A DNA stretch of 64,000 nucleotides, from assembly GCA_944363635.1 (NCBI GenBank), contig CALVUP010000004.1:10249-74248 (forward strand), in the 5' to 3' direction. Numbering within the stretch: position 1 is the first letter of the stretch; the number at the start of each line of letters is the position of its first letter. Under the pieces are notes generated by a model. The model saw only the letters and a program-made list of their open reading frames with translations. It was not told the DNA's origin and did no database searches. A program made the translations under genes and the position numbers. The DNA comes from an uncultured Bacilli bacterium (GTDB taxonomy: Bacteria > Bacillota_I > Bacilli_A > RF39 > UBA660). Of the stretch, positions 6,099 to 39,473 are shown in pieces.

Positions 6099-9002
6099 CT
6101 AAGTTCTTAAATAATTTATAGTTGCGGAACAATTATTGGCCCACTTACTATCCCAATTTTCATTTACATAGGTTTCTGTATTATCAATGTCAATAGTTTG
6201 GGATGAAGTCCAACCAGCAAAAGTATTTAGACCTATACTTGTAACATTATTTGAAATAGTTATTGACATAATATTGGTACAACTTTGGAAAGCATAACTT
6301 CCTATAGTTACTACACTCTCTGGAATTTCTATAGTTTTTAAATTGGTACATCCAGAAAAAACCGTATAACCAATGGCAGTTACACTGGTTGGAATCTCTA
6401 CTGAAGTTAAATTCTTCATGTTTGAAAACGCATTGTTTCCTATATCTGTTACTCCATCTTTAATAATAACCTTTTTAATAGAATCCTTACTAGCTGTCCA
6501 CGCATATGGACGATCTCCATCAGAGTTATCACCCTGAATCATCTTTCCATCTCCAGTGATAATTAATTCCTCAATCTTAAAAGCACTAAAATCATCATAT
6601 CCTTTTGTACCATCAACTGTTAATTTTTTCAAATTATCACAGTTTATTAGAATATACTCACCCATATTCACCACACTCGTTGGAATTTCTATTGAACTCA
6701 AATTTGTACAAGAATTAAATGCATAATCTCCAATTGCAGTCACACTATCAGGTATAGTGATTGACATCATTTGACATCCATAAAAGGCATTCGCTTCGAT
6801 TTCAGTTACCCCGTTCGGAATGATTATTTCTGTTAAATTCGCACAACCACTAAATGCATATGTAGAAATTATAAGGACAGTATCTGGAATATGAATAGTA
6901 TCCTTTTGTTCTGGGCATCGAATTAATACTTGGCCATTTTTATCATATAGCACACCATCAATAGACTTATAATTTAAATTATCCTTATCAACATTAATTT
7001 CTTCTAAACTATTGCATACATAAAAGGCGAAATTTCCAATGTTAGATACATTCTTAGGTATTGTAATGGAAACTAGACTAGTGCAATGATCAAATGCATA
7101 AGATCCTATATTTGTTATACTCTCTGGAATTTTTATTGTCTTTAGATTTGAGCAATTATAAAATGCTGAGGTTCCTATACTAGTTATACTGTTTGGAATC
7201 GTTATTGATGATAACATTTGGAAATTTCGAAAAGCATTATCACATATTGATGTAATAGTATTCTCTATAACAATTTCTTTTATTGATGATATCATACTAT
7301 CCCAAGAAAAGTTGGACTGTTGCATTGTACCTGAACCTATTAGCGTTAATTTTTCTAGATGCTCCATACCTGTTGTATAAGAAAAACCATAACTCTTTGT
7401 GGCATCAAAAGTTAATTCTTTTATATTAGAATCGCTTAAAAAAACATTTTTACCAAGTGTGGTTAAAGATGTAGGTAATACTACTTTTTCTAAATGAGTG
7501 CATCCAACAAATGCACTTTGATCAATAGTAGTTGTTCCTTCCGGAATATTTAATTCTTTTAATTTACTATACCCAAAAGCATAATCTTCTATATGCACAA
7601 CTGTACTTGGGATTTCTATGGATATTAAACCAGTACTATAAAATGACAAAGAACTTATAGTTGTAACTTTTGATGGTATATTTATACTTACTAAATTACT
7701 GCAATTATAAAATGCACTATCTCCTATACTTGTTATACTATTAGGTAATGCTAATTCTTTTAATCCGCGACAACCGTAAAAAGCTCTATCAGCTATCGTA
7801 GTTACACTTGCGGGAATTTTTACTTCTGTTATATCTTCATTTCCGGTAAATAATCCCTCTGGTATATTGGTTATTCCATCTTCTAACATGATACTTTTTG
7901 CAGGGATTGTTGGATTATTTAGACTGTTAATTTGTTCTTCGAGTTTTGTATAAAACTCTTGTCCCTCATCTGTTGGCTGTCCATTTTCATCCATTAATCC
8001 TTGCCCTACTAAATATGCCATATAGGCATCCATTGTTAGTTCAATGTCACTGATATCGTATCCTAAGCTCTCTAAGACATCTTGCATAATTACTAATTGT
8101 AAAAGGGTTTCCATGTCTTGGGATATTATACTTTGGTATAACTCTGGATCTTCTTGTTGCAACCTCATAAGATAATCTTGAAATTCTTGTAATGATGTAA
8201 AAGATGTGACATCTTTCTCGGGAGCACCAGCCGCGATAAACACATTTTTATAAATATCTATAAATTCTTCACTTATATATATTAATGTATCAGATAAATT
8301 ATTTTTAATTTGGCCTTGCCCTTTTATAACTACATTCCCATTCGCATACATATAGGCAGTTACACTTCCATCTCCTGCTTCAGAGACATCTATTTGTTGT
8401 ACTAGTCTATTCTCATCATAGATTTGTACAGCCTCAATACTTACTTTTGCTTCAAAAGTTTTATTGGTAGCTTGTTCTGTTGTAGCATTATAATCTACCC
8501 ATAAATATAACTTATAATGATTGGATTTTGTTGTATCTAGATATTTATTATCGATTTTATAAAGTTTCTTTCCTTCTTTTTCTATAACTTCTTCTTGTGA
8601 TATGGTTCTTGCAGATGAAGTTACTATTTTTTCTGTTCCATCTTCTTCTACTGTTAAATAATATCTTACTACATCGACTGGAAGTGTTGATACACTCTCA
8701 TCGATTTCAATATATAAATCATACTCAGCATTTATGGTTCCTTTATTTACTACATCAAAAGTGTATGGTGTTTGCTTTTTACCTTCTTCTTCTGTAATGG
8801 GAAAAGCATTTTCTAAAGTAATTTCATCTTGTTCATTTTCTATTCTTACATCTAATTTCCCTGCACTAATGACACTATCTTGTTCTCCTCTTGTTACTGT
8901 TCTAAATACAGCATAAGAAGTACCTAACACTAAAATTAATCCTGCGAGTATTCCTGTTATTTTCGCAATTCGATCATATTTTTTTCTTTTCTTATTATCC
9001 AT
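6099..9002 (-). CDS. BspA-like leucine-rich-repeat (LRR_5) surface protein with N-terminal TasA/camelysin-like domain
   Basis: Signal-like ILVLGTSYAVF; many IPxSVTxIGxxAFxxCxxL repeats. Confidence 0.85.
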   Translation of the reverse strand: MDNKKRKKYDRIAKITGILAGLILVLGTSYAVFRTVTRGEQDSVISAGKLDVRIENEQDEITLENAFPITEEEGKKQTPYTFDVVNKGTINAEYDLYIEIDESVSTLPVDVVRYYLTVEEDGTEKIVTSSARTISQEEVIEKEGKKLYKIDNKYLDTTKSNHYKLYLWVDYNATTEQATNKTFEAKVSIEAVQIYDENRLVQQIDVSEAGDGSVTAYMYANGNVVIKGQGQIKNNLSDTLIYISEEFIDIYKNVFIAAGAPEKDVTSFTSLQEFQDYLMRLQQEDPELYQSIISQDMETLLQLVIMQDVLESLGYDISDIELTMDAYMAYLVGQGLMDENGQPTDEGQEFYTKLEEQINSLNNPTIPAKSIMLEDGITNIPEGLFTGNEDITEVKIPASVTTIADRAFYGCRGLKELALPNSITSIGDSAFYNCSNLVSINIPSKVTTISSLSFYSTGLISIEIPSTVVHIEDYAFGYSKLKELNIPEGTTTIDQSAFVGCTHLEKVVLPTSLTTLGKNVFLSDSNIKELTFDATKSYGFSYTTGMEHLEKLTLIGSGTMQQSNFSWDSMISSIKEIVIENTITSICDNAFRNFQMLSSITIPNSITSIGTSAFYNCSNLKTIKIPESITNIGSYAFDHCTSLVSITIPKNVSNIGNFAFYVCNSLEEINVDKDNLNYKSIDGVLYDKNGQVLIRCPEQKDTIHIPDTVLIISTYAFSGCANLTEIIIPNGVTEIEANAFYGCQMMSITIPDSVTAIGDYAFNSCTNLSSIEIPTSVVNMGEYILINCDNLKKLTVDGTKGYDDFSAFKIEELIITGDGKMIQGDNSDGDRPYAWTASKDSIKKVIIKDGVTDIGNNAFSNMKNLTSVEIPTSVTAIGYTVFSGCTNLKTIEIPESVVTIGSYAFQSCTNIMSITISNNVTSIGLNTFAGWTSSQTIDIDNTETYVNENWDSKWANNCSATINYLRT

Positions 9003-9112
9003 ATCATCACCTATTTTCCTATTTTATTTTATAATGAATCGCTTGGCACTGTCAAGAAATTCTTGTGTTTCTTATTTATTCATTATATAATCTTAAACAA
9101 GGAGGAAAACAC

Positions 9113-36414: not shown

Positions 36415-36454
36415 ATGCATTACAATTATATCATTAATATTTAAAAAAAGGAAG

Positions 36455-37030
36455 TTATTTTTCTTCCTTTTCTTGATATTTTGATAAATATAGATCAATT
36501 TCTTCTTCATTTTGCCCTTTAATTGTAATATCTTTCATTTTAGGTAATTCTTCTATAGTAGAAAGTCCAAAGTAATCTAAGAATTCTCTAGTGGTTTGAT
36601 AAAGAATAGGTCTTCCCGGCATATCACTTCTTCCTGCCTCTTTTACAAGGCCTTTCGCAACAAGTCTTCGAATCATCTGTCCGCTATATACACCTCTTAT
36701 CTCATCTACTTCACTTCTTGTGATAGGCGCTTTATAAGCAATAATCGCTAGTGTTTCTAAAGCGGCTTGACTTAACATATTGGTATTTGGTGTTTCTACT
36801 AATTTCTTATAATATTCTTTATGTTCTTTTTTTGTTGTTAATTTAAAACGATCTCCCAAAAAGTGAATTTGAATGCCTCGATCTTCTTTTGCATATTTTT
36901 CTCTTAAAGAAGTTAAAGCGGCTTTTACATCTTCTTCTTTGATCTCTAATATTTCTTGTAATTGGTCTAAAGTTAAACCTTCATCTCCAACTATAAATAA
37001 TAATCCTTCTATAATTGCTTCTATATTCAT
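36455..37030 (-). CDS. scpB: Segregation and condensation protein B
   Basis: LSQAALETLAIIAY..PITR, GRPILY.TT..FL.YFGL. Confidence 0.96.
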   Translation of the reverse strand: MNIEAIIEGLLFIVGDEGLTLDQLQEILEIKEEDVKAALTSLREKYAKEDRGIQIHFLGDRFKLTTKKEHKEYYKKLVETPNTNMLSQAALETLAIIAYKAPITRSEVDEIRGVYSGQMIRRLVAKGLVKEAGRSDMPGRPILYQTTREFLDYFGLSTIEELPKMKDITIKGQNEEEIDLYLSKYQEKEEK

Positions 37031-37746
37031 TCGACTACCTCACATATTATATTATCAAAATTGTTTTCTTGCTTTATAATTAATTCTCTTTTTTTCGCCA
37101 TTTCTAATATGGTTAGAAAAGTAACGACAATGTATTCTTTTGTTGGTGTTTCAAATAAATCAAAAAAGGAAACTTTCTTTTTCTCTTTTAAAATGTTTTT
37201 GATACTTTGTCTTCGCTGTTCAATAGATATTTCTTTTGTAGTCACATTGGTTTTTAATGGTTGATCTAGTTCTTTTCTTTCTAATACTTTTTTTAAAGCT
37301 TCCATTAAATCTTCTAAAGATAAATCACTATTTATAACTGTGCCTTCTTCTTGGTATTCTTTTAGGCTTTCTGGGATCTTTGTATGAATATCTTTTCTTT
37401 TCATTTCTAGTTCTTTAAATTCTTTGGTTAGATTTTTATATTTTTGATATTCAATTAATCTTTGAATTAAAGCTTCTCTTGGATCCATTTCCTCTTCTTC
37501 GGTTTCTTCTTTTTTCGGATTTGGTAAAAGTAGTTTTGATTTTAGTTCAATAAGTTCAGAAGCCATAACTAAATAACTACTCGCAATATCTAAATTCATT
37601 TCTTTCATAGCATTTATATAATCTAAATATTGTTCTACGATATCTTCTATTTTAATATCCCAGATTTCTACTTTGGATTCTTTAATTAAGTGCAAAAGTA
37701 GATCTAAAGGACCTTCAAATTCATTGATTTTTACTTTATATTCCAT
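37027..37746 (-). CDS. scpA: Segregation and condensation protein A
   Basis: FEGPLDLLLHLI, KSKLLLP, VTFL.ILE. Confidence 0.96.
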   Translation of the reverse strand: MEYKVKINEFEGPLDLLLHLIKESKVEIWDIKIEDIVEQYLDYINAMKEMNLDIASSYLVMASELIELKSKLLLPNPKKEETEEEEMDPREALIQRLIEYQKYKNLTKEFKELEMKRKDIHTKIPESLKEYQEEGTVINSDLSLEDLMEALKKVLERKELDQPLKTNVTTKEISIEQRRQSIKNILKEKKKVSFFDLFETPTKEYIVVTFLTILEMAKKRELIIKQENNFDNIICEVVE

Positions 37747-37775
37747 ATTTAACACCATATTTATTATACAAGATT
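37742..37775. repeat. Direct repeat copy 1 (scpA -10/RBS/ATG)
   Basis: tccatatttaacaccatatttattatacaagatt; 32/34 identical to 39073-39106. Confidence 0.85.
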
Positions 37776-37811
37776 ATTAAAATAAAGTCTATATTAGAAA
37801 AGAGGAGTAAT

Positions 37812-39077
37812 TTATTTCTTTCTTGTTACCTCCTCTATATCAATCCTTTTATCTCCTAAATTTGTAATTTCTTCTGTCATTTTCTTTAATGGCATCTGCT
37901 CATAAGACGAAAAATCGCTTTTCCTTTTTATGTCATCATTTTCTAAATAGTAATGTCTTCCTGTTGTTAAAGTAGAAGGTTTTTTTATAAAACGATTCCC
38001 CATCATAATTCTACACAAAATTATACCAGCATCTTTCACTTTTGAAAGAGTTCTCGCACAATTGTCAAAATAAATTTGTGTTATTTTTGTTTTTGGAGAT
38101 GCTTTTATTTTTTTATAGACTCTAGATTGTTTTATATTTAAATTTATATTATGATACAAAGCTTCTAAATTAATCACAAACCAACTATCTTTTTTAATAT
38201 CCCTTGTTCTTGCATGCGTAAAATCATAAATATATTCTTTTCCATTTATTTCAATGGAATTTAATCCATGGTCTTCTTTTTCTGAAAAGAGTATTTTTGT
38301 TTTTATATTTAATTGTGGATGGTTTAAAATGAGATAGGACAATTCTGAAAAAGCAGAACAAACACCATTTCTATTTTTTAATAAATAATAGGCTTGATGA
38401 AAATCCTTTGAAAGAGAATTCCTTTTATTTTTTAATTTGACCAATCGTCGTTTTTCAAACTGGAATAAATTCTTTTTTCTTTCATATCGAGCAATTTTCT
38501 TATCAAGTGATTGCTGCTTGTTTGCATGCTTTTTATCATAAGAAAAATAATCGTGATAAAATTTATCTAATAAAAATACCTTTTGAATATCGGAAGTTGC
38601 ATTTTTATTTAGAGCATCTACTAGATTATCGATTTGATCTAAAAATACTTCGATTGGATATTCTTGCTTTTCTTTTGGATTATAAATACGATTGTTATCA
38701 AAATAATTCAGTTTATAACGATCTTTTTTATCTACATCATATACATTATAACAATTTACTGAATTCTGAATCGTCACTCTTTCATCTGCGATTTCCGCTA
38801 TTTCTTTTAGTGAATATATACTAGGAAAGTATGCACTCACATGAATAGGTGATTCTGGATTTTTTTTAATTAAATAATCGACAATTTTTTGATATTGGAA
38901 TTTATCATGTAAATTAAATTGTAAATTTCTTATATTTGGATAGTCTTTTCTTATCTTATCAAAAACAAAATCCATACTTTCTTCTGTATCTAAAAATACA
39001 ATTAAGTCTTCATCATTATAAATCTGATCGTTATTTAACATTTCTTCCAATGAGACCCATTTTGTCTTATTATCCAT
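37812..39077 (-). CDS. Orphan protein with a transglutaminase-like Cys-His-Asp triad
   Basis: LKNRNGVCSAFS...DHGLNSIEINGKEYIYDFT. Confidence 0.7.
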   Translation of the reverse strand: MDNKTKWVSLEEMLNNDQIYNDEDLIVFLDTEESMDFVFDKIRKDYPNIRNLQFNLHDKFQYQKIVDYLIKKNPESPIHVSAYFPSIYSLKEIAEIADERVTIQNSVNCYNVYDVDKKDRYKLNYFDNNRIYNPKEKQEYPIEVFLDQIDNLVDALNKNATSDIQKVFLLDKFYHDYFSYDKKHANKQQSLDKKIARYERKKNLFQFEKRRLVKLKNKRNSLSKDFHQAYYLLKNRNGVCSAFSELSYLILNHPQLNIKTKILFSEKEDHGLNSIEINGKEYIYDFTHARTRDIKKDSWFVINLEALYHNINLNIKQSRVYKKIKASPKTKITQIYFDNCARTLSKVKDAGIILCRIMMGNRFIKKPSTLTTGRHYYLENDDIKRKSDFSSYEQMPLKKMTEEITNLGDKRIDIEEVTRKK

Positions 39078-39106
39078 ATTTATCACCATATTTATTATAT
39101 AAGATT
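39073..39106. repeat. Direct repeat copy 2 (orphan -10/RBS/ATG)
   Basis: tccatatttatcaccatatttattatataagatt; 32/34 identical to 37742-37775. Confidence 0.85.
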
Positions 39107-39167
39107 TGATAAAATATTACAAATTATTCTTATATACTTTTCATTTTTTGTTTGGTATAATTGTTTT

Positions 39168-39473
39168 ATGAAACGATTTACTATGATGGATGAAAAATTT
39201 ATATGTGAACATTGTAAAAGTGAAGTACTTCCTTTAGGGTATACAGCAAGAGATCATTGCCCTTATTGTTTGTACTCTAAACATGTGGATATTCTACCAG
39301 GGGACAGAAGTAATTCTTGTCATGGATTATTAGTTCCTATCGGTATAGAAAAATATAAAGATACTTTTAAAATTGTATATCAATGTGAACGTTGCAAGAA
39401 ATTTCATAAAAATATTATGGCTCAGGATGATAATATGGACAAAATAATAGAACTATCGAATGTAGAAAGATAG
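39168..39473 (+). CDS. RNHCP domain protein
   Basis: F.CEHC...RDHCPYCLYSKHVD..PGDR...C.G. Confidence 0.9.
   Translation: MKRFTMMDEKFICEHCKSEVLPLGYTARDHCPYCLYSKHVDILPGDRSNSCHGLLVPIGIEKYKDTFKIVYQCERCKKFHKNIMAQDDNMDKIIELSNVER

Follow-up and report, generated by a model that had tools for sequence, protein, structure and literature searches.

A 34-bp repeat of the scpA leader on both sides of an inserted transglutaminase-like gene in an uncultured, probably gut-dwelling Bacilli bacterium

How can a newcomer gene settle directly in front of scpAB, behind what looks like scpA's own promoter, ribosome-binding site (RBS) and start codon, and leave the operon intact? The question is raised by a locus in the window, a 64,000-nucleotide stretch from the genome of an uncultured Bacilli bacterium (hereafter G000; 1.24 Mb, 29.7% GC, sporulation genes present). 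Segments 37742-37775 and 39073-39106 are identical at 32 of 34 positions and are spaced 1331 bp apart, and on the minus strand each of them reads TATAAT, GGTG and ATGGA. These re-measured values agree with the original prediction, in which scpA and the gene upstream of it were said to use near-identical expression cassettes. Both copies also have a -35-like hexamer 17 bp ahead of TATAAT.

The repeat occurs twice in the genome, and the next closest site has 7 mismatches. When the leaders of 1,196 called genes were compared in 714,610 pairs, three pairs matched at 31 or more of 34 positions; two of these were paralogues and the third was scpA and the inserted gene. The other unrelated pairs reached 30 and 29 of 34 at most, and the chance expectation for adjacent pairs at 30/34 or more was 0.005. 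Because the match is 32/34, no third site is near and so few adjacent pairs are expected, we concluded that the repeat is not due to chance. The pattern TATAAT-N6-GGTG-N6-ATG is itself a frequent leader type in this genome, and it is the near-identity alone that is special to the scpA pair. A generic leader standing before many unlinked genes, which the prediction had considered, was ruled out: no third copy exists within 6 mismatches and no other unrelated pair exceeds 30/34, so that near-identity is limited to the scpA pair and paralogues. At many genes across the genome just 6-9 bases separate the -10 hexamer from the GGTG-type RBS behind it, so that their 5' leaders would be very short.

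The inserted gene and the predicted promoters

All features of the locus lie on the minus strand except the RNHCP-domain gene (39168..39473, plus strand; PF12647), the ancestral head-to-head neighbour of scpA. Next to it, what remains of the ancestral divergent intergenic region (39107..39167) carries a -35-like TTGTAA at 39122-39117, now used in front of the inserted gene. Repeat copy 1 (39073..39106) follows, with a -10 at 39099-39094, a GGTG RBS-like motif at 39087-39084 and the start codon of the inserted gene at 39077-39075. This gene (37812..39077) encodes a 421-aa transglutaminase-like protein of the cysteine-protease fold. In its tail (37776..37836) the stop codon is spanned by a weak hairpin (37836-37801), and a -35-like TAGACT (37791-37786) precedes the copy 2 -10 at a distance of 17 bp. 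Copy 2 (37742..37775) contains the scpA -10 (37768-37763), GGTG (37756-37753) and the scpA start codon (37746-37744). The target gene scpA is intact (37027..37746; PF02616, E 1.5e-40), its stop is overlapped by scpB (36455..37030; PF04079), and a terminator-like hairpin follows scpB (36446-36471). The locus gave no Rfam match.

The inserted gene had been called an orphan, a label that does not hold strictly, as 32 relatives were found at E<=0.001. In an alignment of 33 sequences the only invariant columns are Cys240, His270 and Asp285, and 21 of the 33 match PF01841. The description as transglutaminase-like stands as far as the Cys-His-Asp order and these 21 sequences are concerned, but not for a Pfam match of the inserted protein itself, which has none to a transglutaminase. 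Its structure model (pLDDT 88.7) had a best Foldseek E of 6e-4, to 3isr, over part of its length; the best structural matches, 3isr, 9crn and 4xz7, are all transglutaminase-like folds and span about 150-170 of the 421 residues at a TM of about 0.2-0.28. Among the Atlas matches, PF01841 was found on 11-58% of members. The protein shares with the transglutaminase-like superfamily (PF01841) the invariant residues and the best structural matches, whereas an N-terminal alpha/beta domain and helical insertions are its own additions. The product is likely a putative cytoplasmic thiol enzyme, and nothing connects it with ScpAB.

Against its ortholog in the related genome G003 the inserted gene had a dN/dS of 0.30, compared with 0.10 for scpA, and by this measure it is under purifying selection. 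Its GC content (25.8%, scpA 26.1%) was uninformative on origin. Homologs are sparse, being present in 19 of 401 genomes of the family and in differing neighbourhoods. Strain differences between contigs cluster in the inserted gene at 38040-38520 (e.g. 26 of 748 bases), compared with 2 of 946 in adjoining sporulation genes.

We asked which of the two leaders is the original one. G002, a congener that lacks the insert, has a single scpA leader, and the 90-bp region upstream of the inserted gene aligns with the 87-bp region of G002 at 63 of 90 positions (z 7.3). The 30 bp upstream of copy 1 match G002 at 19/30 in G000 (z 3.9; the z for G003 is 3.1), whereas the 30 bp upstream of copy 2 show no similarity to it (z -0.5) and are conserved at 25/30 between G000 and G003. 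Because collinearity with G002 is found on the side of the inserted gene only, the newcomer occupies the original scpA promoter, and copy 1 is by position the original scpA leader. The claim that the newcomer obtained scpA-type expression signals was supported by this alignment. Copy 2 itself matches the single G002 copy at 31/34, and the scpA promoter, as read from its sequence, would be a hybrid of a duplicated -10, RBS and ATG with a -35-like hexamer taken from the tail of the insert. Both copies look like active sigma-70-type promoters, and both genes probably stay expressed. The hairpin across the stop codon of the inserted gene may make scpAB dependent on copy 2; it reached z -3.2 in G003 and z -1.4 in G000, and a terminator scan of the G000 locus did not call it.

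The empty site and the origin of the repeat

The genus consists of four genomes, G000 to G003. In G002 the RNHCP gene stands head-to-head with scpA with one leader in between (L032 8895-8940), which aligns to both copies, and the inserted gene was not found in the rest of this genome, which is 88% complete. A relative without the gene and with one copy of the repeat had been predicted, and here the empty site indeed breaks at the repeat. G003 has the inserted gene at the same site (66.5% identity), and G001 has it beside RNHCP (44.6% identity over 323 aa) on a contig that ends before scpA. G002 is the first branch in the genus (98% UFBoot, 8 genes, four outgroups) and has the lowest identities over 80 genes, in agreement with early branching. 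The head-to-head layout of RNHCP and scpA was present at 31 of 106 usable scpA loci, including those of G002 and of the closest outside genome, G120 (116 loci were examined; 7 were too short and 3 had no placed start). Because G002 branches first and loci outside the genus share its layout, we concluded that the inserted gene is a gain. The predicted insertion at the scpA start with duplication of the leader is supported by this empty site, found in a different species and not in another strain.

The insert is common to three species, G000, G001 and G003. In G003 copy 1 has decayed, keeping 20 of the 30 bases before the ATG with at least 7 changes and one indel, although TATAAT, GGTG and ATG are retained. 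In G001 the leader of the inserted gene is unrelated to the repeat (9/29, z -1.2). With three species sharing the insert, the repeat decayed in one and the first copy absent from another, the insertion looks old and fixed, as judged from these alignments. Gene conversion in G000 may have occurred but would not be needed as the source of the likeness between its copies, because 41 of 258 orthologous leaders of G000 and G003 also stay at 32/34 or better.

Our best explanation, to which we assign a probability of about 0.6, is that the locus is an old insertion scar at the scpA start, with the 34-bp leader on both sides, that host recombination and not an enzyme encoded by the insert likely produced, and that it was likely kept because each leader copy drives one gene. 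The event may have proceeded in two steps. First, the gene would insert in front of scpA together with a leader of its own, a state still seen in G001. Incoming DNA from an insert-bearing strain would then enter an empty allele by recombination that was homologous within scpA and illegitimate at the start codon, so that the leader of the recipient would stay on the left and the scpA leader of the donor would come to lie on the right. Homology-facilitated illegitimate recombination, as described in the accessible part of PMC3240628, joins a homologous and an illegitimate end and could yield such a flush start-codon joint; its application to this locus is our own. A ComEC-family gene was present in 5 of 5 genomes tested. 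The choice between this two-step re-entry and a one-step target duplication with later remodelling in G001 is about even, and we slightly prefer the two-step route because it accounts for the flush ATG, the collinearity on the left and the state of G001. However, G001 could merely have remodelled copy 1, and the order of events is not fixed because its scpA and leader are unassembled.

Against host recombination speaks the fact that the same genome holds insertion sequences (IS) that make 28-31-bp duplications. The repeat could accordingly be the scar of a long-repeat IS or integrative element, whose enzyme duplicated the scpA leader; subsequent loss or replacement of the element body would have joined a passenger gene to the first copy. 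G000 carries an IS1182-family gene flanked by a perfect 31-bp repeat as well as an ISNCY (IS1202-like) gene flanked by one of 28 bp, and IS1202-type elements, according to the accessible part of bioRxiv 2022.12.17.520857, produce repeats of 27-28 bp. But the insert and the window contain no element end or recombinase remnant. Six queries found no integrase or transposase in the window, bearing out the earlier remark that none is nearby, and the same six queries, run on 116 scpA loci no longer than 3.7 kb, found one weak integrase match (E 7.5e-4). There were no TIRs and no transposase between the two copies and no recombinase beside them in the window, so that the locus fits neither a long-repeat IS nor a site-specific integrative element. 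In addition, the inserted ORF begins within the repeat, leaving no space for an element end, and two additional events would be required. We regard an IS origin as unlikely.

Equally unlikely, in our judgement, is promoter capture within the genome, in which a resident gene with its own leader acquired the scpA leader by tandem duplication followed by deletion, or by gene conversion, in the ancestor of G000 and G003. The unrelated leader of the G001 gene is what such a history would leave. So is the state of two genomes of another genus described below, G428, where the first copy is missing although the insert is there, and G246, whose copies share lineage-specific letters; promoter reuse has also been described (PMC3575422). 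However, the collinearity of copy 1 with the empty site extends through all 87-90 bp, the -35 included; copying the present scpA leader would have carried the TAGACT tail along, and an exact return of the old spacing would be a coincidence.

The original prediction also held that the repeat would allow clean excision, and a cassette that excises and re-integrates by recombination of the two leaders is conceivable: a direct repeat of 32/34 permits clean deletion, the G002 allele is the expected product of such a deletion, and homologs occur in many different neighbourhoods. But G002 is an outgroup, and the G003 repeat has decayed. Live excision found no support in contigs from chicken gut and faeces (five studies; contigs 95-100% alike): a joint between the two copies was not seen in the contigs of 8 runs, which drop rare variants, whereas gene-present contigs bridge the scpA junction in 5 of 7 independent runs and the RNHCP junction in 4 of 7. 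Moreover, a bracketing repeat is lacking at 14 of the 16 homolog loci. We therefore consider a mobile cassette highly improbable; the unit behaves as a fixed scar and not as an active mobile element.

Chance convergence of stereotyped leaders without any duplication, although the leader type is common and copy 1 is matched at 36/39 by an unrelated metagenome gene and at 35/40 by a tsaE-like gene of G001, is effectively refuted by the break of the G002 empty site at the repeat and by the leader-pair survey, and the metagenome collection as a whole gave just 3 exact matches to the leader pattern, all at unrelated genes and none at a relative.

Bracketing repeats at other loci

We examined whether leader duplication is a general route of promoter capture, as had been proposed. 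Adjacent leaders were no more alike than random ones (mean 15.3 vs 15.0 of 34). A scan for further adjacent non-homologous genes with a shared leader returned 1 of 961 pairs at 26/34 or better in G000, and none of 166, 689 and 424 pairs in the fetched parts of G001, G002 and G003, respectively. A second scpA leader (at least 24/34, within 1.5 kb upstream) was found at 1 of the 106 usable scpA loci, the one described here. These numbers speak against a special or general route. The idea of scpA as an insertion hot spot was ruled out by the same count, 1/106.

Between three genomes, 3 of 128 indel events were flanked by a long repeat (596 null pairs gave a maximum of 14); the events are partly redundant and cover 0.92 Mb of G002 and 0.58 Mb of G003. 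The three are the scpA locus, the IS1182-family element (31 bp) and a RelB/YafQ-type pair (39 bp). The IS1182-family transposase gene (NF033551; G000:C3:9925-11575, L190) lies in a perfect 31-bp direct repeat, which itself forms a hairpin, and is present once in the genome; G002 lacks the repeat hairpin altogether at this site. The ISNCY-family (IS1202-like) transposase gene (NF033594; G000:C30:433-2172, L192) lies in a perfect 28-bp direct repeat. The RelB/YafQ-type toxin-antitoxin pair of G002 (L113:9790-10538) is inside a 39-bp repeat of stop codon and terminator that is single copy in G003.

Accessory genes in these genomes are also enclosed by other repeats of 28-50 bp, most of them without an empty site in the DNA compared. 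In G000, two neighbouring unrelated genes are identical at 42 of 44 positions that include the RBS and GTG start (C48:638-681 and 1970-2013, L191; spacing 1332 bp); they are presumably DUF1016-like and RhuM-like genes. The gene caller missed this pair in the adjacent-leader count, since its second gene runs off the contig, and no homologous locus was found in the relatives' DNA compared. G002 has a 45/45 stop-plus-terminator repeat around one gene (L105:3602-4315), a 47/50 repeat of RBS, ATG and 10 codons at a GTPase gene and a 29/31 repeat at the end of a methyltransferase gene (L053:647-1438 and 7660-9035); the relatives' DNA compared contained no empty site for these. Dispersed copies of an element of about 330-420 bp, which begin alike with a promoter-like stretch and contain hairpins and a short ORF of about 27 codons, were also seen in G000 (C1:25892-26580, C6:26035-26368 and 29766) and in many places in G002. 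The element had no Rfam match except an adjacent tRNA and is possibly a small RNA or peptide family.

Of the homologs of the inserted gene, 19 loci were examined, and after removal of 2 without a complete ORF and 1 with a wrong ORF picked, 2 of 16 were bracketed by a long repeat. With the scpA case excluded the count is 1 of 15; for other genes it is 5 of 861, and the difference is no clear enrichment. The second bracketed homolog is in another genus (G246; L314:815-2770), where two copies, 68/79 identical, of the promoter, RBS and first codons of a core gene enclose a distant homolog of 488 aa together with a small ORF. The core gene is presumably ireB-like, judging from its sequence and a ruvX-like gene beside it. 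In the upstream copy, RBS and ATG have been lost. G010 and G397 lack the insert and each carry a single copy. In G428 the insert is present but the first copy is not, in parallel to G001 at scpA. The G246 copies match each other at 35/40 but match G010 or G428 at only 25-26/40; from this comparison the repeat would be younger than the arrival of the insert, or have been homogenised later. Another homolog, in G170 (L196:676-3415), lies together with a split DUF1016-like gene inside a repeat of 45-80 bp that is located in the 3' part of a comEC-like gene.

Comparison with known systems and the re-entry proposal

Insertion with long target duplication has been defined by a repeat of more than 30 bp, an insert of less than 20 kb, the lack of a mobile element and an empty site (Furuta, Abe and Kobayashi 2010, PMC2853133). 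The accessible part of that paper credits the first description to work in H. pylori, gives unique repeats of 44-46 bp in Haemophilus influenzae, notes that the repeats often cover a translation start or stop with the target left intact, and draws its cases mostly from competent species. The scpA locus resembles this class: its repeat has 34 bp with only two copies in the genome, its insert of 1331 bp has no mobility genes, its repeat contains no tRNA, and a single-copy empty site exists in a relative, although G002 is another species and the class was compared between strains. A start-spanning repeat, an intact target and competence genes in the host are common to both. There are also differences from what that part describes. 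The insert had no Pfam or NCBIfam match to restriction-modification genes; its cargo is transglutaminase-like, whereas restriction-modification was the selection criterion of that study, and the role in DNA breakage proposed there for the cargo is therefore not applicable. Moreover, the inserted ORF begins in the repeat and its tail provides a -35-like hexamer. Thus the promoter-duplicating arrangement put forward in the prediction is real, but it is not a new route, since insertions including start-codon-spanning repeats are already on record in the part of that paper cited here. We conclude that the scpA locus is a clean example of an insertion mode already described, with its mechanism unexplained, and differs by its cargo.

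Long-repeat IS are similar in repeat length. IS1202-subgroup elements have repeats of 27-28 bp (bioRxiv 2022.12.17.520857) and IS1630 has repeats of 19-26 bp (cited in PMC2853133), as far as the accessible parts go, with related work in bioRxiv 2024.06.02.596822. Such elements, including the IS1182-family copy, occur in this genome, but no transposase or element ends lie between the scpA repeats. Putative mobile promoters (PMC3575422) share with our locus near-identical upstream DNA at unrelated genes. Their definition, however, requires at least 50 nt of upstream DNA, located between -150 and -50, to be 80% identical, whereas the scpA similarity covers 34 nt from -29 to +5, is between neighbours and is linked to an insertion. 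In the accessible texts returned by a literature search there was no relevant report of insertions at scpA, or of this gene family in these bacteria.

Because at both sites, scpA and that of G246, a congener carries the insert but not the first copy, re-entry suggests itself as a wider explanation. We tentatively propose, while regarding it as doubtful, that long target duplications spanning a start codon arise not at first insertion but later, when natural transformation brings the inserted gene back into an empty allele through homologous recombination at one end only, and that the putatively cytoplasmic transglutaminase-like gene family captured core-gene promoters in this way at least twice (scpA, ireB-like) in this gut Bacilli family.

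As a single locus, the unit at scpA is a fixed scar, in which a foreign gene was set before an important operon and would have been expressed at once while the operon remained unbroken, by means of a 34-bp repeat and a hybrid promoter. Host recombination is suggested by the nuclease-free cargo and by the two congeners in which the insert stands without the repeat. Re-entry, if true, would provide a nuclease-free mechanism for this class of insertion.
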